Notes under the pieces: generated by a model | What the model was told of the DNA's origin: nothing | Database searches by the model: none | What the model saw: only the letters and a program-made list of their open reading frames with translations | Part shown: positions 1 through 13,940 of the stretch, in pieces | How the letters are laid out: the number at the start of each line of letters is the position of its first letter | How positions within the stretch are numbered: the first letter of the stretch is position 1 | Source: an uncultured Pseudomonadales bacterium | GTDB lineage: Bacteria > Pseudomonadota > Gammaproteobacteria > Pseudomonadales > Azotimanducaceae | Direction: 5' to 3' | Assembly: GCA_964348085.1 (NCBI GenBank) | Contig: CAYGBI010000012.1 | Location: 215 to 64,214, forward strand | Length of the DNA stretch: 64,000 nt | Program-made: the position numbers and the translations under genes

Positions 1-100
1 CGCGCGCCGCCCATTCCTAGTGCGGGACACTAGGATCATCGAGCCGCGAGAGCGCTCCCGGCCTCGGTGCATACCGCACGAGGCCCTCGGCAAGGTGCGC

Positions 101-628
101 CTAGGCGCCACTCAGTATCACCACCCCCTGCTCGAACGCTGAGCGCGCTCGCGCCTTTAGCTCCGGCACCGTGCGGCTGCCGATGGGGTGTTCCACCATG
201 GCGAATGGGTAGTCCGGCAAGCCGAGCGCCCGAGCGATATTGCGCCCGGTGGGTTCGAACGGGCGGGTGCAGATCACCAGCGCCGGTTTGCCGAATTGTT
301 CGAAGGAGATGCCGTCATGCACACTGCACGTTGAGCAGCTCCCTCAGTCGCCGACCGCCGTGATGAGGAAATCCGCCGCCTGCGCCAACGCGCGATGATG
401 TTCCGGTAGCGCCGGACGGCTGGCATTGCGCTTGTCGATGAAGTGCGCCGAGCGGCAACCGTAGGCATCGGCGAAGAGCGCGGCGGTTTCCCGCAGCAGA
501 ACATCCGCGTTCGCCTTGCCGTTGGCGAGCAGCCCCATTCTCAGGCCGGTGAGGTCGGCGAGGCGCGGGGCAGCGGTGCGGTTCGTATTCCCGCCTCGGC
601 CGCCCGGGTCGATCAAGGTAATCGTCAT
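101..628 (-). CDS. UGSC-motif selenoprotein candidate (175 aa, in-frame TGA at 344..346 read as selenocysteine)
   Basis: Tracked ORFs 344..628 and 101..322 share one frame. Between them lie only TGA and then GGG AGC TGC TCA ACG TGC AGT, giving ...ITAVGD-U-GSCSTCS-VHDGISF... U-G-S-C is the signature of the UGSC (seleno)protein family and a UxxC redox motif. Confidence 0.65.
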
Positions 629-646
629 TTGCTTGCTTTCTCCTAG

Positions 647-1699
647 CTAACAGTCGATGCACACGCCGACCGGTTTGGACTGCATCAGCGAACTGCGACT
701 TCGGCTCCACGACGGAATGAAAGCCGAGTGGCCGCCGGCGTCGCCGCCCGCGACGAGGATGAGAATGTCGCTCGGGTCGAAGCCGCGATGCACATCTTGG
801 GTGCCTTGGCGCTCGTGCTCCCGCGGTACGTACTTCCCCACCCGTCGCATGTCCGAGACCGTTTGCCGCGCACGATCAAAAAGGTAGCGCTGAACGTCGG
901 CTCTCGTCCAACCGGTGCCGGCGACGATGTCCGCATGTTCCGGCGACAGCACCGCCACGGACTGACCGCTGGTAATGCAGCCCAAATTGGCCATTGAATC
1001 CGCCATGCAATCGAGAATCGCCTCCGGCGTATTGCCGCCGTGGTTTTCGACGTTGCCGAACCCGGCGCCGGCGAACACGGTGACGCTGGAGATGTCCTCG
1101 CCGTAGCCGAGTTCCACATGCAGGGGCGGCCACGGGCTGCGTTCCGCCCGTTCGGCGATGCACGAACAATACTTGCCGGGATGGCCTTGGGTGGATTGGT
1201 CGGAAACGCCGGGGATCATCTCGAAGACGTTCAGGATGATGAGACGCATGGCGCGGCCGATGGTGGCGTTGGCGCGGTTGCCCGGGCCGAAGACGTTGCC
1301 GGCGGCGTTCATGCCGATGTCCCGCACCACCGGCCCGGAGACGATCAACAGCGGCGCCGCACCGCCGGTGCTGGCGGTGGAGGCGTGGAAGTTGTAGGCC
1401 GGCTCGTTGGCGGCTTCGAGCGCCGCGACGATGACCGGGAAATACTCCGGCAGGCAGCCCGCCATCACCGCGTTCACCGCCGCGGCCAGCACGCTGCACT
1501 CCAGACCCGTGGCGGGATGGGTGGCCAGCGTCGTTTCCGGCGGACGGCCCTCCATGGCGAGCATCGCCTCGACCCGGGGCGCCTCCGGCGGCACCACGGG
1601 CAGGCCGTCCGTCCAACCCCGTTCGTAACACTCGTCGATCGCCGCGAGGGCGTCGCTGGCCACTGCCACGGTCTTCGCTGAGTTCGGAATGCTGGTCAT
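647..1699 (-). CDS. conserved hypothetical protein (350 aa), co-operonic with the TRAP genes and the UGSC gene
   Basis: Long ORF with coding-like composition, 19 nt downstream of the TRAP large permease and 18 nt upstream of the UGSC gene on the same strand. No family recognised by eye (GWTDGLPVVPPEAPRVEAML N-terminal motif). Confidence 0.7.
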   Translation of the reverse strand: MTSIPNSAKTVAVASDALAAIDECYERGWTDGLPVVPPEAPRVEAMLAMEGRPPETTLATHPATGLECSVLAAAVNAVMAGCLPEYFPVIVAALEAANEPAYNFHASTASTGGAAPLLIVSGPVVRDIGMNAAGNVFGPGNRANATIGRAMRLIILNVFEMIPGVSDQSTQGHPGKYCSCIAERAERSPWPPLHVELGYGEDISSVTVFAGAGFGNVENHGGNTPEAILDCMADSMANLGCITSGQSVAVLSPEHADIVAGTGWTRADVQRYLFDRARQTVSDMRRVGKYVPREHERQGTQDVHRGFDPSDILILVAGGDAGGHSAFIPSWSRSRSSLMQSKPVGVCIDC

Positions 1700-1718: not shown

Positions 1719-3074
1719 TCATCGAATCCCGTAAGCCTGCCCCGGCAGCCATGTCGCCAGCGCTTGCCAATTGAAGATGATGGCGAGGCCGATGAGCTGA
1801 ATGATGATGAATGGCGTCACGCCCCGGTAAATCACCGGCAAGTCCACGCCCGGCGGCGCGACGCCGCGTAAATAGAACAACGCCCCGCCGACGGGGGGCG
1901 TTAGAAAACTCGTCTGTAAACACACCGCGAACATCACCGTGAACCAGACGGTGTCGAACTCCAGCGCCGCCACCACGGGCGCGACCAGCGGCAAGATTAT
2001 CAGGGTGAGTTCGAGCCAGTCCAAGAAGAACCCCAACAGGAAGGTAGCGATGAGAATGCAGATGATGATGCCGGTTGGGCCGAAGGGCAGGCCCAGCAGC
2101 GTGCGTTTGATGATTTCGTCGCCGCCCAAGCCGCGCAACACCAAGGTGAAGCACACCGCGCCGAGAATGGCGGCGAAGATGAACGCGGTGGTGCGCGAAG
2201 TTTCTTCCACCACCTCCGCCATCACCTTGCGGTTTAGGGAACGCTTGAACGCCGCTAACAGCAGGGCGCCGGCCGCGCCGACGCCGGCGGCCTCGGTGGG
2301 GGTGGCGAGGCCGAAGAAAATGCTGCCGAGCACCGCCAGAATGAGTAGCGCCGCCGGCACTACGGCGAGCGTGAGCTCCCACGCCGCCCGCCAATCCATG
2401 GTTTGCGCTGGGGCGGCCGGCGCACGATCGGGTTTCAGCAAACCGACGCCAAGCAGATATACGATGTACAAGCCGCCGAGCAGCATGCCGGGGAACAACG
2501 CCCCCAAGAACAAGTCGCCGACGCTCATCGCCATGCGGTCCGCCATCACCACCAGCATGATGCTCGGCGGAATGAGAATGCCGAGTGTGCCGACGGCGCA
2601 AACCGTCCCGGATGCCAAGCGCTTGTCGTAGCGGTTGTCGAGCATCGCCGGCAAACCCAGCAGGCCGAGCAGCACCACCGACGCGCCGATAATGCCCGTG
2701 GACGCCGCAAGCAGCACGCCGATGATGGTTACCGCGATGGCGAGGCCGCCGCGCACCGGGCCGAACAGTCGGGCAAAGCCGGTGAGCAGACTGCGGGCGA
2801 TGCCCGAGCGGTCCAACAGCACGCCCATGAAGATGAACATCGGCAGCGCCACCATCACCCAGTTTTCCATCACGTCCCAGATGCGATCGACGCTCATGGA
2901 GGCGTAGAACCAATCGACATTGGTGGGAATAGCGAAATCCACCTCGAAAACGATGGCCAGCACCGTGAACAGCACGGCCAAGCCGCCGAGCACCCAAGCG
3001 ATGGGATAGCCGGTGAACACCAGCGCGATGAAGGTGATGATCATCGTCAGCGCCAAAGCCTCCGACCCGCTCAC
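1719..3074 (-). CDS. TRAP transporter large permease (DctM family)
   Basis: Polytopic membrane protein with DctM-like sequence (MIITFIALVFTGYPIAWVLGG..., ...PPVGGALFYLRGVAP...). The start is either GTG at 3074, overlapping the DctQ stop as GTGA, or ATG at 3044. Confidence 0.9.
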   Translation of the reverse strand: MSGSEALALTMIITFIALVFTGYPIAWVLGGLAVLFTVLAIVFEVDFAIPTNVDWFYASMSVDRIWDVMENWVMVALPMFIFMGVLLDRSGIARSLLTGFARLFGPVRGGLAIAVTIIGVLLAASTGIIGASVVLLGLLGLPAMLDNRYDKRLASGTVCAVGTLGILIPPSIMLVVMADRMAMSVGDLFLGALFPGMLLGGLYIVYLLGVGLLKPDRAPAAPAQTMDWRAAWELTLAVVPAALLILAVLGSIFFGLATPTEAAGVGAAGALLLAAFKRSLNRKVMAEVVEETSRTTAFIFAAILGAVCFTLVLRGLGGDEIIKRTLLGLPFGPTGIIICILIATFLLGFFLDWLELTLIILPLVAPVVAALEFDTVWFTVMFAVCLQTSFLTPPVGGALFYLRGVAPPGVDLPVIYRGVTPFIIIQLIGLAIIFNWQALATWLPGQAYGIR

Positions 3075-3595
3075 GACGCCACCTTGGTCAGATACGCCCA
3101 CAGCCGACTGAGGCGGGACGCCAAGGCCGCGAGCAGGAGGAGAAACGCCGCCGGCAAGACGCCTTTCAAGAACCACCGAAACGGCAACCCGCCGGGCGAC
3201 GAGGAGACCTCCGACGCCGCCCAGCTATGGCCCACGAAATTCCAGCTAAACGCGAGCACCGCGATGATGAATGGCAGCAGCAAGAGCAACGTGCCGTAGA
3301 GCTCGATCCACACTTGCAGCCTCGGGCGCAGTCGATTGGCGAGCAGGTCGATACGAATGTGGGCGTCTACGCGGTAGGCGTAGGCGATGGCGAGCATGAA
3401 CGCCAACGCATTGATATGCCACTGTAGTTCCTCGAGCTCGATGCGGCCTTCGTCGAACACGTAGCGCAGCGTGACGTTGACGATCACCACCACGAGCAGG
3501 ACTACCCACAGCCAGCTTGCCGCTTTGCCGATCAGCGTCAACCCGCCGTCCACCGCGCGGGAAAACCGGGTTTCGGGAAGCTCGATGCCGGTCAT
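3071..3595 (-). CDS. TRAP transporter small permease (DctQ family)
   Basis: The C-terminal 174 aa of tracked ORF 3071..4948 is a four-TM DctQ-like protein. Its ATG at 3595 overlaps the DctP stop (ATGA). Confidence 0.85.
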   Translation of the reverse strand: MTGIELPETRFSRAVDGGLTLIGKAASWLWVVLLVVVIVNVTLRYVFDEGRIELEELQWHINALAFMLAIAYAYRVDAHIRIDLLANRLRPRLQVWIELYGTLLLLLPFIIAVLAFSWNFVGHSWAASEVSSSPGGLPFRWFLKGVLPAAFLLLLAALASRLSRLWAYLTKVAS

Positions 3596-4704
3596 TTGAA
3601 GTCCTTCGGCAGATACGCCAACCGCCGCCACTCGCGATAGGTCTCTTGAAACGCGCGCTGCGACTCGAGCACGGTCGCGAAATCCGGGTCGTTGGCCGCC
3701 TCTTCGTCGAGAACGGCGTCGGTTTCTCGTTTGAGCAGCCGAAGCAGCTCGTCCGAGAGGTAGTTGGCGGTGACGCCGATGTTCTCGAAGTTGGCCACTA
3801 CCGGCCCCTGCAAGGACTCCGTGAGGCCGAGGCTTTGCGCGACGGACCCCGCGCAAGCGACATCGAGCAGCGCTCGGTCCGCATCGGCGATATTCCGCCA
3901 CACCTCTAGGTTGACCACCAGATGCGTCGCGCTGAACGGCTGATGCCAGCCCGGAAAGTGGTTGTATTTGGCGATACGGGCGAAACCCAAGGCTTGGTCG
4001 GTGATGGGTTGGGAGAACTCCGTGGCGTCGATGACGCCGGTTTCCAAGGCTTGGAAAATCTCCCCGGCGGGCAGCATGGTGACCGAAGCGCCGACCCGGT
4101 CCATCACCTTGCCGCCAAGCCCGGCGAAGCGGATCTTCAGCCCTTGAAGATCGTCCGTGGAACGCAGCGGCGCACGAAACCAACCGGCGGTTTCCGGCCC
4201 GGAAATACCGCACAAGAGCGGGCGAATCTGGTGCTCCGCGTAGATACGTTCCGCCAACTCCTTGCCGCCGCCGAAGTGCCACCAGCCGATGTAGGCCCAA
4301 GGATCCAAGCCGAACGGCGTGGCGCCGAAGAGCGGCGAGACCGGCAGCTTGCCCTGATCGTAGCCCAGCCAAGTAAAGCCGGCCTGCACCTTGCGCTCCC
4401 GCACGGCGTCCGTTATTGCGAACGCCGGCGCGAGTTCGCCCGGGTCGAAAAGTTGCAGCACCACGCTGCCGCCCGACGCCGCCCGTACGGCGTCGGCCAG
4501 CCAGATGGGCGTCTCCCCGGAGCCCGGTAAGCTGCGCGGCGCGCTCAGCGGCACCCGCCAGCGAATGCGCACCGGCTGGCCGCCCTCCTGCGCGGCTGCC
4601 ACGGTGCGAGTCCCCGCCCCGGGCGGGCGTACCGCCAAGCTTGCCGCCAGCCCGGCGACGAAAGCGACGACAACCGCGACGATCACGGCGCGTTTGGAAA
4701 ACAC
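3592..4704 (-). CDS. TRAP transporter substrate-binding protein (DctP-like, COG4663-type)
   Basis: 370 aa with an N-terminal signal/anchor and TRAP solute-receptor-like sequence. It is followed directly by the Q and M components. Confidence 0.9.
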   Translation of the reverse strand: MFSKRAVIVAVVVAFVAGLAASLAVRPPGAGTRTVAAAQEGGQPVRIRWRVPLSAPRSLPGSGETPIWLADAVRAASGGSVVLQLFDPGELAPAFAITDAVRERKVQAGFTWLGYDQGKLPVSPLFGATPFGLDPWAYIGWWHFGGGKELAERIYAEHQIRPLLCGISGPETAGWFRAPLRSTDDLQGLKIRFAGLGGKVMDRVGASVTMLPAGEIFQALETGVIDATEFSQPITDQALGFARIAKYNHFPGWHQPFSATHLVVNLEVWRNIADADRALLDVACAGSVAQSLGLTESLQGPVVANFENIGVTANYLSDELLRLLKRETDAVLDEEAANDPDFATVLESQRAFQETYREWRRLAYLPKDFK

Positions 4705-4931
4705 GTGGCGGCCTCCCCGAGTGGCAATGCGTTGAGTAACCCGAATGTGCTTGCGCGGTCAACCTTGGATCGACCGACGGAGTTTGACGCAGCGCCCCCG
4801 TTATCGGAAACCGCCTGAATCCAAAAAGCGATTGCCCTCGGGCACTCGGCGCCTTCGCCGCCCCGTCACCCCCTGCCCACACGCTATACTGGCTGTCCCT
4901 TACTTCTCCCAAGATCAAGGAAATCAGCAGC

Positions 4932-7070
4932 ATGGCACTGCTTGGCACGGTTCACTACGAGGTCCGCGACGGCGTGGCGGTGCTCACCATCGATAATCCG
5001 CCCGTGAATCCGTTGAGTTCGGGCGTGCGTTTTCATCTGTCGCGGCATATGGCGACGGCGTTGGCCGACGATGCGGTGGCGGCGGTCGTGGTCACCGGCA
5101 AGGGACGCGCTTTCATCGCCGGGGCGGACATTCGCGACTTCGGCAAAACGCCGAATCCCGACGAACAGCCGGCGCAACCGGTGGGCGTGCTCATGGAGGC
5201 CGCCGAGAAACCCATCGTCGCCGCCATCAACGGCACGGCGTTCGGCGGCGGTTTGGAGCATGCACTGATGTGCCACTATCGGGTGGCGGCGCCTGGCGCG
5301 CCGGTTGGGTTGCCGGAGATCAAGATCGGTCTGTTGCCGGGTGGTGGCGGCACGCAGCGGTTGCCACGGTTGATCGGCGCGGAACGCGCCATGGACGCCA
5401 TCCTCACCGGCGATCCATTCGACACCGAAGAAGCGCTCGAACTCGGCATTCTCGACGAGATCATCGACGGCGACCTGGTCGAGGGGGCGATCACTTTCGC
5501 GAAGGGCAAGGCCGAGGCCGGCGGACCGTACCCCTTGGTGCGCAATCGCCGGGACAAGGTCGAAGCGGATCGTGGCAATCCGGACGCCCTCAAGGCCGGC
5601 GAGGCGTATCTGCGTCGCCGAATGCGTGGCCAGTTCAACGGCCGCATGGCCTTCGAGTGCGTGCGGGCGGCGGTGGAGGTCGACGACTTCGACGAAGGCA
5701 TCCGCATCGAGCGAGCCAACTTTCAGCGCTGCCACGACCACGAGCAACGCGCCGCCATGATTCACGTTTTCTTCGCCGAGCGGCGTGCGGCGCGCATTCC
5801 CGACGTCTCCGCCCACACGCCGAGCGGGACCGTCGCCACGGCCGCCACCGTTGGCGGCGGGTTGATGGGCGGCGGCATCGCCATGTGTTTCGCAGACGCC
5901 GGCATCCCGGTGAAGATCCTCGAAACGAGCGAAGAGGCGTTGGCGAACGGGCTAAAGGTCATCGCCAACAATTACTCGCGCATGACGCGTAGCGGCCGCA
6001 TCACCCCAGAGGAGCGGGAGCAGCGCTTGGCGCTCATTGACGGCACGCTGAACTATGACGACATCCGAGACGCGGACGTGGTGGTCGAAGCCGTCTACGA
6101 GAACCTCGACCTGAAGAAAGAGATATTCCAAAAGCTCGACCGCACCATGAAGGCCGGAGCCGTGCTCGCCAGCAACACCTCCGGGTTGGACTTGGACCAA
6201 ATGGCCGCCAGCACCGAGCGTCCGGGCGACGTGGTCGGCATGCACTTCTTCAGTCCCGCCAACATCATGCAGCTATTGGAGGTCGTGCGCGGGGCGGAAA
6301 CCGCCAAATCGACGCTGGCGACGGCCATGACGCTCGGCAAGATCATCGCCAAGAAGCCCGTGCTGGCCGCCAACGCGCCGGGCTTCATCGGCAATCGAAT
6401 GCTGGGCGGCTATACCCGGCAGGCCGGCGAGATCATCCTGCACGGTGCGCTGCCGGAGCAGGTGGATAAAGTGATCGTCGATTTCGGCTTCAATATGGGG
6501 CCGTTCGCGATGAACGACTTGGTGGGTCTCGATCTTGGTTGGCGGGCGCGACGGATGTCCGGAATGAAGCCGGAAGACAAGCCGCTCACCACCATCGTGC
6601 CAGACAAACTGTGCGAACTGGGTCGCTTCGGGCAGAAGACCAGGGCCGGCTTCTATCGCTACGCCGAGGGCGCGCGCCAAGGCCAACCCGATGCCGAAGT
6701 CGCCAAGCTCATCGCCGAAACATCGGCCGAACTCGGTATCGAGCGTCGCACGATTGGCGATGAAGAAGTGTTGCGACGCTGCCTCTATCCGTTGATCAAC
6801 ATTGGCGCCCAATTGCTTGAGGACGGAATCGCGCTGCGTGCCAGCGACATCGACGTGGTATACGTCTACGGCTACGGCTTCCCCAAGTACCGGGGCGGGC
6901 CGATGTACTACGCCGATCAGGTCGGCTTGCGGAACATCTACCGCGACATCGCCTCGCTACATCAGGAATACGGCGACGTCTGGCGGCCGGCACCGTTGCT
7001 GAAGCGATTGGCGGAAGAAGGAAGCACGTTCCAAGCGTGGGATGCCGCCAACGCCGCGGCCAGCGGGTGA
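4932..7070 (+). CDS. fused enoyl-CoA hydratase / 3-hydroxyacyl-CoA dehydrogenase (FadJ/FadB-like)
   Basis: 712 aa. The N-terminal part is a crotonase fold (VVVTGKGRAFIAGADI). The central part is a Rossmann fold (VGGGLMGGGIA) followed by 3-hydroxyacyl-CoA dehydrogenase C-terminal domains. Confidence 0.9.
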   Translation: MALLGTVHYEVRDGVAVLTIDNPPVNPLSSGVRFHLSRHMATALADDAVAAVVVTGKGRAFIAGADIRDFGKTPNPDEQPAQPVGVLMEAAEKPIVAAINGTAFGGGLEHALMCHYRVAAPGAPVGLPEIKIGLLPGGGGTQRLPRLIGAERAMDAILTGDPFDTEEALELGILDEIIDGDLVEGAITFAKGKAEAGGPYPLVRNRRDKVEADRGNPDALKAGEAYLRRRMRGQFNGRMAFECVRAAVEVDDFDEGIRIERANFQRCHDHEQRAAMIHVFFAERRAARIPDVSAHTPSGTVATAATVGGGLMGGGIAMCFADAGIPVKILETSEEALANGLKVIANNYSRMTRSGRITPEEREQRLALIDGTLNYDDIRDADVVVEAVYENLDLKKEIFQKLDRTMKAGAVLASNTSGLDLDQMAASTERPGDVVGMHFFSPANIMQLLEVVRGAETAKSTLATAMTLGKIIAKKPVLAANAPGFIGNRMLGGYTRQAGEIILHGALPEQVDKVIVDFGFNMGPFAMNDLVGLDLGWRARRMSGMKPEDKPLTTIVPDKLCELGRFGQKTRAGFYRYAEGARQGQPDAEVAKLIAETSAELGIERRTIGDEEVLRRCLYPLINIGAQLLEDGIALRASDIDVVYVYGYGFPKYRGGPMYYADQVGLRNIYRDIASLHQEYGDVWRPAPLLKRLAEEGSTFQAWDAANAAASG

Positions 7071-12374: not shown

Positions 12375-13940
12375 GTGAAGCTCGACCGAGTTGTTGCCGC
12401 ATCGTCGACGGTCGCCGGCACGCGCAGCCGCAAAGCCAAACGAGATGCGCTGGCGGAATGTCTAGTGGGCTTGGGCCCCGAGGATGCCGTGGTGGGCGTG
12501 TGTTACCTCTCCGGCGCGTTGCCGCAAGGCCGCATCGGGGTGGGCCCGGGGCTGTTGCGGGCCTGCGAGAGCGTGCCCGTCGCGGATTCGTCAACCCTTG
12601 AGCTTCGCGACGTCGATCAAGCGGTTCGCGCCTTTGTCGCCGCCAAGGGCAAGGGGGCGGTGGCTGTTCGGCGCGAGTGTCTGAGGTCGCTGTTTCGCCG
12701 GGCGAGCGCGGCGGAACGCGACTTCCTGATCCGACTGTTCGTTGGCGAACTGCGTCAGGGCGCCCTCCAAGGCGTGATGGTGGAGGCCATCGCCAAAGCG
12801 TGGAGCGTGGCGCCGAGCGAGGTGCGACGCGCCCATATGCTCTGTGGCGACATCGCCGAAGTTTCGGGAGTGGCGGCCGCCGCAGGGGAGAGCGGCTTGC
12901 GACGCATCCGCTTGCGGTTGGGCAGGCCGATCCAATCCATGTTGGCAAAGACCGCGGAGAACCTCGACGACGCCTTCGGCAGCTTCGCCACGGACGGCGG
13001 GGCCACGGATGCAGGGGAAGGCGCGCCCGTGGTGGTGTTCGACGTGAAAATGGACGGTGCCCGGGTTCAGGTGCATAAAGAGGGCAACGATGTGGCCGTC
13101 TTTTCCCGGCGGCTGAACGATGTGTCCGCTAGCGTGCCGGAGGTAGTCGAAGCGGTGCGCCGGCTGCCGGTGCACAGACTGCTGCTCGACGGCGAAGCCA
13201 CCGCGATTGCCAAAGACGGGCGGCCGCTGCCCTTCCAAGTGACGATGCGGCGTTTCGGGAGGCGCTTGGATGTGGCGGCCATGCGCGCCGAACTGCCGCT
13301 TACGGTCTATTTCTTCGATTGTCTTCATGCCGACGGCGCCGACCTGTTGGAGCAGCCCTGCACCGAGCGGTTGCGACAGCTCGATCTCGCCGTCCCGCCG
13401 GAAGAGCGTATGCCGCGTTGTGTCACCGCCCTCGCCCGGGAGGCGAGCGGCTTCTTAGATGAAGCGATGCGAAGCGGTCACGAAGGGGTCATGGCCAAGC
13501 ATCCCGCGTCCGTTTACGAGGCCGGTACGCGGGGCGGCTCTTGGCTCAAGATCAAACACAGTCACACGCTGGACCTAGTGGTGCTCGCCGCCGAGTGGGG
13601 GAGCGGGCGGCGTCGGGGGTTTCTCTCCAACTTACACTTGGGCGCGTGGGATCCGGCAACCGGTGGTTTCGCCATGCTCGGCAAGACCTTCAAAGGGCTC
13701 ACCGATGCGCTGCTCAAGTGGCAGACGCGCGCGCTCTTGGACCTCGAGACAGGGCGCGCCGGCCACGTGGTCTACGTCGAACCCAAGCTGGTGGTCGAGA
13801 TCGCCTTCAACGACGTGCAGATCAGTTCGCAGTACCCGAGCGGCGTGGCGTTGAGATTCGCCCGCGTCAAGCGCTATCGCGAGGACAAGGAAGCGACACA
13901 GGCGGACACGATCGACGCCGTGCGAGCGTTGCTGCCGTGA
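12375..13940 (+). CDS. ATP-dependent DNA ligase (three-domain Lig1/LigB-like)
   Basis: 521 aa with an N-terminal DNA-binding domain and adenylation motif I VKMDGAR. Motifs EGVMAK and WLKIKHSHTLD, and a C-terminal OB domain, are also present. Confidence 0.9.
   Translation: MKLDRVVAASSTVAGTRSRKAKRDALAECLVGLGPEDAVVGVCYLSGALPQGRIGVGPGLLRACESVPVADSSTLELRDVDQAVRAFVAAKGKGAVAVRRECLRSLFRRASAAERDFLIRLFVGELRQGALQGVMVEAIAKAWSVAPSEVRRAHMLCGDIAEVSGVAAAAGESGLRRIRLRLGRPIQSMLAKTAENLDDAFGSFATDGGATDAGEGAPVVVFDVKMDGARVQVHKEGNDVAVFSRRLNDVSASVPEVVEAVRRLPVHRLLLDGEATAIAKDGRPLPFQVTMRRFGRRLDVAAMRAELPLTVYFFDCLHADGADLLEQPCTERLRQLDLAVPPEERMPRCVTALAREASGFLDEAMRSGHEGVMAKHPASVYEAGTRGGSWLKIKHSHTLDLVVLAAEWGSGRRRGFLSNLHLGAWDPATGGFAMLGKTFKGLTDALLKWQTRALLDLETGRAGHVVYVEPKLVVEIAFNDVQISSQYPSGVALRFARVKRYREDKEATQADTIDAVRALLP

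Follow-up and report, generated by a model that had tools for sequence, protein, structure and literature searches.

A probable selenocysteine-encoding UGSC gene and its conserved upstream partner in an uncultured Pseudomonadales bacterium

The archetypal bacterial selenocysteine insertion sequence (SECIS) is that of E. coli fdhF, in which G23 and U24 are the SelB contacts. UGSC is an established selenoprotein family that has been in the literature since 2007-2008 (PMC1976440; PMC2398784). A 'UGSC-containing protein' was first reported from Hyphomonas neptunium and ocean metagenome data (PMC1976440), and in the GOS data the family was among the most abundant, with 255 Sec forms compared with 21 Cys forms (PMC2398784). 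The protein was described in 2008 as 'likely Trx-like', and some of the reads were fused to a domain termed 'Unknown_1' (Zhang and Gladyshev, 2008; PMC2398784). A 2026 review lists UGSC together with the NCBIfam model NF041046 and calls such proteins functionally uncharacterised (PMC13188914).

The gene described here lies near one end of a 64,000-nucleotide stretch of contig CAYGBI010000012.1 from an uncultured Pseudomonadales bacterium (64.7% GC), subsequently referred to as the window. The features of the locus are collected in Table 1. On the minus strand an ORF of 94 aa (344..628) opens with ATG and terminates ...ITAVGD-TGA, with the TGA at 346..344. Beyond the TGA the same frame continues with GGG AGC TGC TCA ACG TGC AGT before reaching a GTG (322..320), which opens a second ORF of 73 aa (101..322), and the first later stop is the TAG at 103..101. 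The fused product of 175 aa reads ...VGD-U-GSC-STCSVHDGISFEQF..., and the minus-strand translation of window positions 95..700 is ...MTITLIDPGG...FLITAVGD-stop-GSCSTCSVHDGISFEQF...VVILSGA-stop. A first-pass annotation made from the letters of the sequence had joined the two ORFs in this manner, and its ORF coordinates, TGA, intervening codons, GTG and 175-aa fusion are exact in every detail; the length of about 175 aa that it gave for the family is indeed that of the product. It had also expected standard gene callers to split or shorten the gene. Dozens of MAGs show this split, and the annotation deposited for the 65,146-bp source contig contains the 94-aa stub only (P0173).

Table 1. Coordinates of the features of the UGSC locus in the window.
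Feature	Position	Strand	Details
Complete coding sequence of the probable UGSC-family selenoprotein	101..628	-	ATG 628..626, TAG 103..101; 175 sense codons including one UGA (Sec)
In-frame UGA, proposed selenocysteine codon	344..346	-	Residue 95, position 1 of U-G-S-C; from conservation and Cys in relatives
AGGAG, Shine-Dalgarno-like	640..644	-	11 nt 5' of the ATG; identified by eye from the sequence
SECIS-like hairpin	301..346	-	nt 1-46 counted from the U of the UGA; from stability, pairing and covariation
Upper stem-loop of the hairpin	316..330	-	nt 17-31, CGUGCA-GUG-UGCAUG; G23-U24 at 324..323
Conserved partner gene	647..1699	-	350 aa, directly 5' of UGSC; from context and fusions

A pair of ORFs abutting at a TGA carries little weight alone, since the window holds 148 in-frame TGAs that have an open frame of at least 50 codons on the 5' side and at least 40 on the 3' side. 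This pair is raised above chance by a single protein-family profile that runs across the TGA, and by the homologous loci, of which 88 of 89 retain both the TGA and an open frame beyond it. TGA is also the commonest normal stop in the window, where it ends 15 of the 29 likely genes; the standard code is therefore in use and recoding at 346..344 would be site-specific. A scan of the window gave no other convincing gene with an in-frame TGA, and a second selenoprotein gene was not found there. The hairpin that ranks next among the SECIS-like ones (49018, minus strand) was rejected because its TGA is off-frame inside a 984-aa ORF.

With U written as C in the query, the product matches Pfam PF24696 ('UGSC family') with a score of 167.7 bits (E = 3.4e-49, cut-off 25 bits). 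Residues 5-172 align with positions 2-170 of the 172 in the model, and a single domain model thus crosses the TGA, with U-G-S-C falling at the family column in agreement with the earlier assignment to UGSC. The NCBIfam model NF041046, 'UGSC family (seleno)protein', gives 124.1 bits for the same query, which is 0.9 under its cut-off of 125. The product also has the U/C-G-S-C motif following an ...ITAVGD strand and the length of a single domain of ~170-185 aa. As the family is present in the literature, in Pfam and in NCBIfam, the gene is an added member and not a new kind; it is a correctly identified new member of an already-described family.

The first homolog search returned four proteins ending ...ITAVGD and one starting MHDGISFEQ, which are the same two stubs, and the DNA of their loci has TGA at the column with the frame open past it. 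Peptide patterns that leave out the Sec column were used to scan 185,579 species genomes, giving 80 loci. The first-pass annotation had proposed that orthologs be compared for Cys or Sec at this column and for continuation beyond it, and its expectation is borne out on both points. Of 89 loci, 88 have TGA as the codon and the remaining one has TCA (Ser); ~80 in-frame codons follow in every locus, and the Cys-type relatives read GDCGSC. The motif is TGA-GGN-(AGY/UCN)-UGY in the same proportion of loci (88/89). These loci span Pseudomonadales/Azotimanducaceae, Dehalococcoidia, Rhodospirillales, Reyranella, Burkholderiales and Myxococcota (at least four phyla), the closest being from Pseudomonadales/Azotimanducaceae with 86% identity. 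The TGA form is carried by OZ242340.1, OY282447.1 and OZ241908.1 and by cultured Reyranella soli NBRC 108950 (BKAJ01), the motif region of which (locus L061) reads ...GLGD-U-GSCSTCSLHDGISFEQ....

This distribution bears on the possibility that a nonsense change (TGC to TGA, for example) or a base-calling error has split a Cys-type gene into non-functional fragments. The TGA is one base from TGC or TGT and the annotated product is a stub, as would be expected of such a gene. However, this TGA is shared across several phyla by 88 of 89 independent loci, independent assemblies give an identical sequence (L001), and the downstream frame is intact, with purifying selection and protein-level constraint evident in the codon alignment. 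The retention of the TGA and the open frame in these loci excludes a pseudogene or a sequencing error for all practical purposes.

The sole locus of the 89 without TGA (L080, encoding P0001; locus position 6283) has TCA (Ser) and the motif S-E-S-C. It retains the upper stem of the SECIS-like element, CGUGCA-GUU-UGCAUG, which suggests a recent single-base conversion from Sec to Ser. Its kin P0128-P0132 have Thr, Ser, Cys or Asp at the column, and there is a small clade in which Ser, Thr or Asp replaces Sec/Cys.

Profile searches also give full-length relatives of 165-191 aa, several of which, from actinomycetes, are named 'UGSC family (seleno)protein' by NCBI. The full-length relatives have GVGD-C-GSC at the Sec column. 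An exhaustive HMMER search over 1.84 billion cluster representatives yields 1,585 relatives with E <= 0.001, of which 337 reach E <= 1e-10. Among the relatives ~100 full-length cluster representatives carry GDCGSC and the matches of 92-94 aa are Sec forms cut off at the TGA. Cysteine at the UGA column in relatives that lack the TGA is a hallmark of Sec/Cys pairs. The gene therefore combines the features expected of a selenoprotein gene, namely a conserved in-frame UGA with coding sequence downstream and Cys homologs at the UGA column.

The contiguous Cys-type homologs are equally relevant to whether the locus could encode two polypeptides, in which translation would stop at the TGA and re-initiate at the GTG seven codons on to give a UGSC domain split into 94 aa and 73 aa. 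ORF callers do give a 73-aa ORF from the GTG at 322..320, and gene callers output both halves in many assemblies. The seven codons between the halves (G-S-C-S-T-C-S) are nevertheless in frame and invariant at the protein level, and contain the GSC of the family motif, which the Cys-type homologs encode without a break. The supposed start is CTG in several lineages (not a table 11 start) and TTG in others, and the GTG itself has no Shine-Dalgarno sequence. In addition, the AlphaFold2 (AF2) model of a homolog (see below) places the motif mid-way in a single domain. Production of two separate polypeptides is thus very improbable, and the evidence favours one product read through the UGA.

The 51 nt that start at the UGA fold into one hairpin of -22.3 kcal/mol (z = -3.0), with 1 of 200 shuffles equally stable. 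The UGA itself is paired, as part of a lower stem formed by nt 1-8 and 39-46. Above it a middle stem is followed by an internal loop, A15-A16 / A32-C33, and then by an upper stem of six pairs (nt 17-22 with 26-31) closed by the loop G23-U24-G25. In stability alone the hairpin is only in the top 4% of the 1,275 TGA triplets in this GC-rich window, although it is the most stable of the 7 window TGA sites that have SECIS-like geometry. bSECISearch looks for an apical loop with G/U about 16-37 nt from the UGA; here a 46-nt hairpin 3' of the UGA presents the loop G23-U24-N25. Neither a scan of the whole window at the Rfam gathering thresholds nor a permissive one of 1..800 gave anything relevant, which is uninformative since we know of no curated bacterial SECIS family in Rfam.

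The fold recurs in 60 distinct sequences. Across the 60 distinct segments 93.8% of cells are paired, compared with 30-50% when the partner strand is slid, and the observed pairing or covariation is reached by 0 of 500 shuffles. Pair nt 6:41 covaries, being G:C in 24 sequences and C:G in 22. In roughly one sequence in three the lower-stem pairs 7:40 and 8:39 do not form. In the upper stem all six pairs are invariant or G:U/G:C; four of these are forced by the conserved peptide T-C-S-(V/L)-H-D, so that conservation of this stem is partly a protein-level constraint. A second caveat is the retention of this stem in L080, where the codon is Ser. A switch of codon class between Ser+2 and Ser+13 (AGY...UCN versus UCN...AGY) was considered as a further case of covariation and rejected, with 50 complementary and 32 non-complementary combinations.

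Synonymous sites under the upper stem and loop of the hairpin are frozen in a codon alignment of 84 distinct genes: Thr+5 is ACG in 81/82, Cys+6 TGC in 84/84, Ser+7 AGT in 84/84 and Asp+10 GAC in 82/84. Elsewhere in the gene the same amino acids vary freely in their codons, as at Ser+56 (AGC 68, AGT 13, TCC 3). Two Cys-type genes served as a control, and neither is able to fold into the window-type hairpin (+1.5 and +2.8 kcal/mol). The first-pass annotation had suggested folding the region downstream of the TGA to look for a hairpin, and one is found that is SECIS-like, conserved and in part covarying. Taken together, the sequence comparisons strongly support a bacterial-type SECIS inside the coding sequence, with a putative role in SelB binding.

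The remaining alternative is that the UGA is read as an amino acid other than selenocysteine, either by near-cognate read-through with Trp, Cys or Arg or by reassignment to Trp or Gly, the hairpin merely stimulating the event. No tRNA, including tRNA-Sec, is found by ARAGORN in the 64-kb window, and tblastn with E. coli SelA, SelB and SelD over the window and 90 loci gives only a generic GTPase match in one of the loci (L023). The sel genes usually lie apart from the genes they serve, and it is assumed here that the selenocysteine machinery is encoded in the rest of the genome. Non-Sec decoding could draw on the Sec machinery not being seen in the window, and also on the Trp that one metagenome caller assigned to the UGA of the homolog P0002. 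On the other side, a reassigned code is contradicted by the use of TGA as the commonest ordinary stop in the window, relatives without TGA have Cys at the column, and in its geometry and its G23-U24 loop the hairpin matches a SelB-binding SECIS. The family has, moreover, been classed repeatedly as a selenoprotein in the literature (PMC2398784; PMC13188914; PMC1976440). Decoding as another amino acid is accordingly given only a slim chance. The Trp call itself (GDWGSC, an ENA metagenome call at L007/L008) lies over a TGA in the DNA, and translation table 4 was apparently used on a low-GC marine contig. With the three alternatives weighed, the minus-strand gene at 101..628 is very probably a genuine selenocysteine-encoding UGSC gene in which the UGA at 346..344 does not act as a terminator.

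By analogy with the known bacterial mechanism, we infer that selenocysteine insertion at this UGA would be SelB-dependent. A ribosome reaching the UGA would have unwound the lower stem, leaving the upper stem-loop (nt 17-31, with G23-U24 in its loop) exposed at the mRNA entrance. The exposed stem-loop could then bind SelB.GTP.Sec-tRNA(Sec) and so deliver selenocysteine, after which translation would go on for 80 more codons. In the resulting protein Sec95 and Cys98 of U-G-S-C may alternate between selenol/thiol and selenenylsulfide states. Gene context and fusions (see below) suggest that UGSC would serve the 350-aa protein encoded upstream, probably by acting as its redox-active subunit or reductant, and that it would probably be recharged by a system of the thioredoxin or thioredoxin-reductase type.

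A search of PDB sequences found no solved structure of a UGSC relative. The 50%-identical homolog P0002 was modelled with AF2 in place of the window protein, using a 45-sequence alignment. The model (pLDDT 92) is built of five beta-alpha units in alternation, and the motif lies where beta3 meets alpha3. The top 50 Foldseek matches in the PDB are flavodoxin, WrbA, FMN reductases, TIR domains and GTPases, with TM values of 0.4-0.5, and contain no protein of the thioredoxin fold. The fold of UGSC is thus predicted from the model to be flavodoxin-like alpha/beta, with Sec95/Cys98 at the beta3/alpha3 junction. A thioredoxin fold (beta-alpha-beta-alpha-beta-beta-alpha, with the motif after beta1) was considered and rejected, as the motif of the P0002 model follows beta3. 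The 2008 suggestion of a 'Trx-like' protein (PMC2398784) therefore finds no support in the prediction.

The gene directly 5' of UGSC is separated from it by 18 nt between its stop and the UGSC ATG. Its product gives no Pfam or NCBIfam domain match and has at least 7,985 homologs, all of them annotated as hypothetical. In 75 of 84 loci this partner is the next gene upstream in the same orientation, and neighbourhood analysis identifies it as the sole neighbour conserved across lineages. It is likewise found ahead of genes for Cys-type UGSC (E = 1e-106 and 1e-117), and in five proteins the Cys-type UGSC domain is fused to it (E = 1e-69 to 1e-88). The partner may be the 'Unknown_1' domain of 2008 (PMC2398784). 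Three of its cysteines (C24, C82 and C180) are invariant or nearly so, and a C-terminal C-x-D-C, in the form GVC(I/L)DC, is absent from the Reyranella-type loci.

The AF2 model of the partner has a pLDDT of 87 and a pTM of 0.89. Its best Foldseek match is 7xky_A, the alpha subunit of a class I Fe-S fumarate hydratase (E = 2.7e-5, probability 0.98), with a TM of about 0.3, an rmsd above 12 Å and 8% identity. The alpha-type hydro-lyases of class I (Fe-S) fumarate hydratase and tartrate dehydratase are thus the closest fold, for the partner only, and the likeness is weak. Assignment of the partner as a class I Fe-S hydro-lyase was rejected, the resemblance being too weak to indicate function and a match to the Pfam Fumerase domain being absent.

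UGSC is also fused to Pyr_redox_2 flavoprotein and to NifU-like CxxC domains. Five Cys-type proteins illustrate these arrangements (P0304, P0299, P0326, P0135 and P0311), with Pyr_redox_2, bearing CGTCDG, or NifU-like CxxC domains. The last of them, P0311, joins NifU-like, UGSC and partner domains in one chain of 657 aa. In a further locus (L092) a thioredoxin gene lies upstream of the UGSC-partner cassette. On this basis it is tentatively proposed that UGSC and the upstream 350-aa protein form a widespread, uncharacterised two-component selenoenzyme system, with Sec in marine and soil Proteobacteria and in Dehalococcoidia, Cys in actinomycetes, and the two components sometimes fused. The flavodoxin-like U-x-x-C protein would here serve a catalytic partner of novel fold, possibly Fe-S related.

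In the window two genes of a TRAP transporter (1719..3176 and 3071..4948, both on the minus strand) lie 19 nt 5' of the partner gene on the same strand. They encode DctM and a 625-aa ORF that has a DctQ domain at its C-terminal end and is matchless over its first ~480 residues. The arrangement suggests that the TRAP genes, the partner and UGSC form one operon in the window; neighbourhood analysis shows that the TRAP linkage is not conserved in the other loci. In two loci (L002/L016, 7812..9944) a FadB-like enoyl-CoA hydratase/3-hydroxyacyl-CoA dehydrogenase is found directly 5' of UGSC and the partner is absent. A FadB-like bifunctional enzyme is similarly encoded in the window at 4932..7070 (plus strand), about 4 kb from the cassette, and a gene resembling acyl-CoA dehydrogenase adjoins the cassette in 23 loci. 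A link of the cassette to fatty-acid or acyl-CoA metabolism is possible.

Downstream of UGSC, two near-identical contigs from one sample (L003, 12428..15123; L002, 12349..15154) diverge just 3' of the gene. At this place L003 carries a CBASS-type defence cassette (SMODS, E2-CBASS and patatin) and L002 three unannotated genes, and both variable regions adjoin a PIN/HTH-Peptidase_M78 pair. In the window the minus-strand sequence 3' of the UGSC stop (1..100) contains two GC-rich inverted repeats without T-runs, GGCCTCGTGC-GGTAT-GCACCGAGGCC and CTAGTG-TCCCG-CACTAG. These repeats, at the end of the window, could be a terminator or a REP-like element. Finally, an ATP-dependent DNA ligase (DNA_ligase_A_N, _M and _C) is encoded on the plus strand at 12375..13940, about 12 kb from the cassette; such ligases are uncommon in Gammaproteobacteria.

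The locus provides a lesson in annotation, as a probable selenoprotein gene has been cut in two by standard callers. The same split recurs in MAGs by the dozen and in Reyranella soli, and one pipeline entered Trp for the UGA. Recognition of the recoding restores what is likely to be a full-length redox protein, from a family that ranks among the commonest selenoproteins in aquatic settings, and makes the organism a likely user of selenocysteine. The pairing of UGSC with its 350-aa partner is a concrete two-gene system for experiments and is present in cultured Reyranella soli. The value of the analysis therefore lies in the corrected annotation and in a partner cassette that offers an experimental handle on an abundant selenoprotein.

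The putative SECIS can be compared directly with that of E. coli fdhF, the sequence of which was confirmed as a 100% match under fdhF in 5,419 genomes. Both elements are hairpins within the coding sequence that begin at the UGA, and they share the register of G23, U24 and U26-G27-C28-A29, the last of these forming the 3' strand of the upper stem. The window-type loop has 3 nt (GUG/GUU/GUC), whereas that of fdhF has 4 nt (GGUC). There is also no bulged U17 in the window element, which has the A15-A16 / A32-C33 internal loop below its upper stem.

At the protein level, Foldseek, which gives only generic flavodoxin-like folds, and the PDB sequence search detect no sequence or fold kinship between UGSC and the UxxC/CxxU redox selenoproteins that the thioredoxin system recharges (Trx-like and Prx-like selenoproteins, and the reductase components GrdA/GrdB and PrdB), and the proposed analogy with these is one of function. 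It draws on the placing of Sec-x-x-Cys at the N-terminus of a helix after a beta-strand, on genomic links to thioredoxin, to flavoprotein of the thioredoxin-reductase type and to CxxC domains, and on the combination of a small selenoprotein with a larger partner. From the UGSC family itself the protein differs in nothing essential: its NCBIfam score is slightly short of the cut-off, and the homolog model is flavodoxin-like rather than 'Trx-like'. With that family it shares a profile match from end to end, a length of ~175 aa, U-G-S-C at the Sec/Cys column, an in-frame UGA with a hairpin downstream, and an origin in aquatic Proteobacteria.
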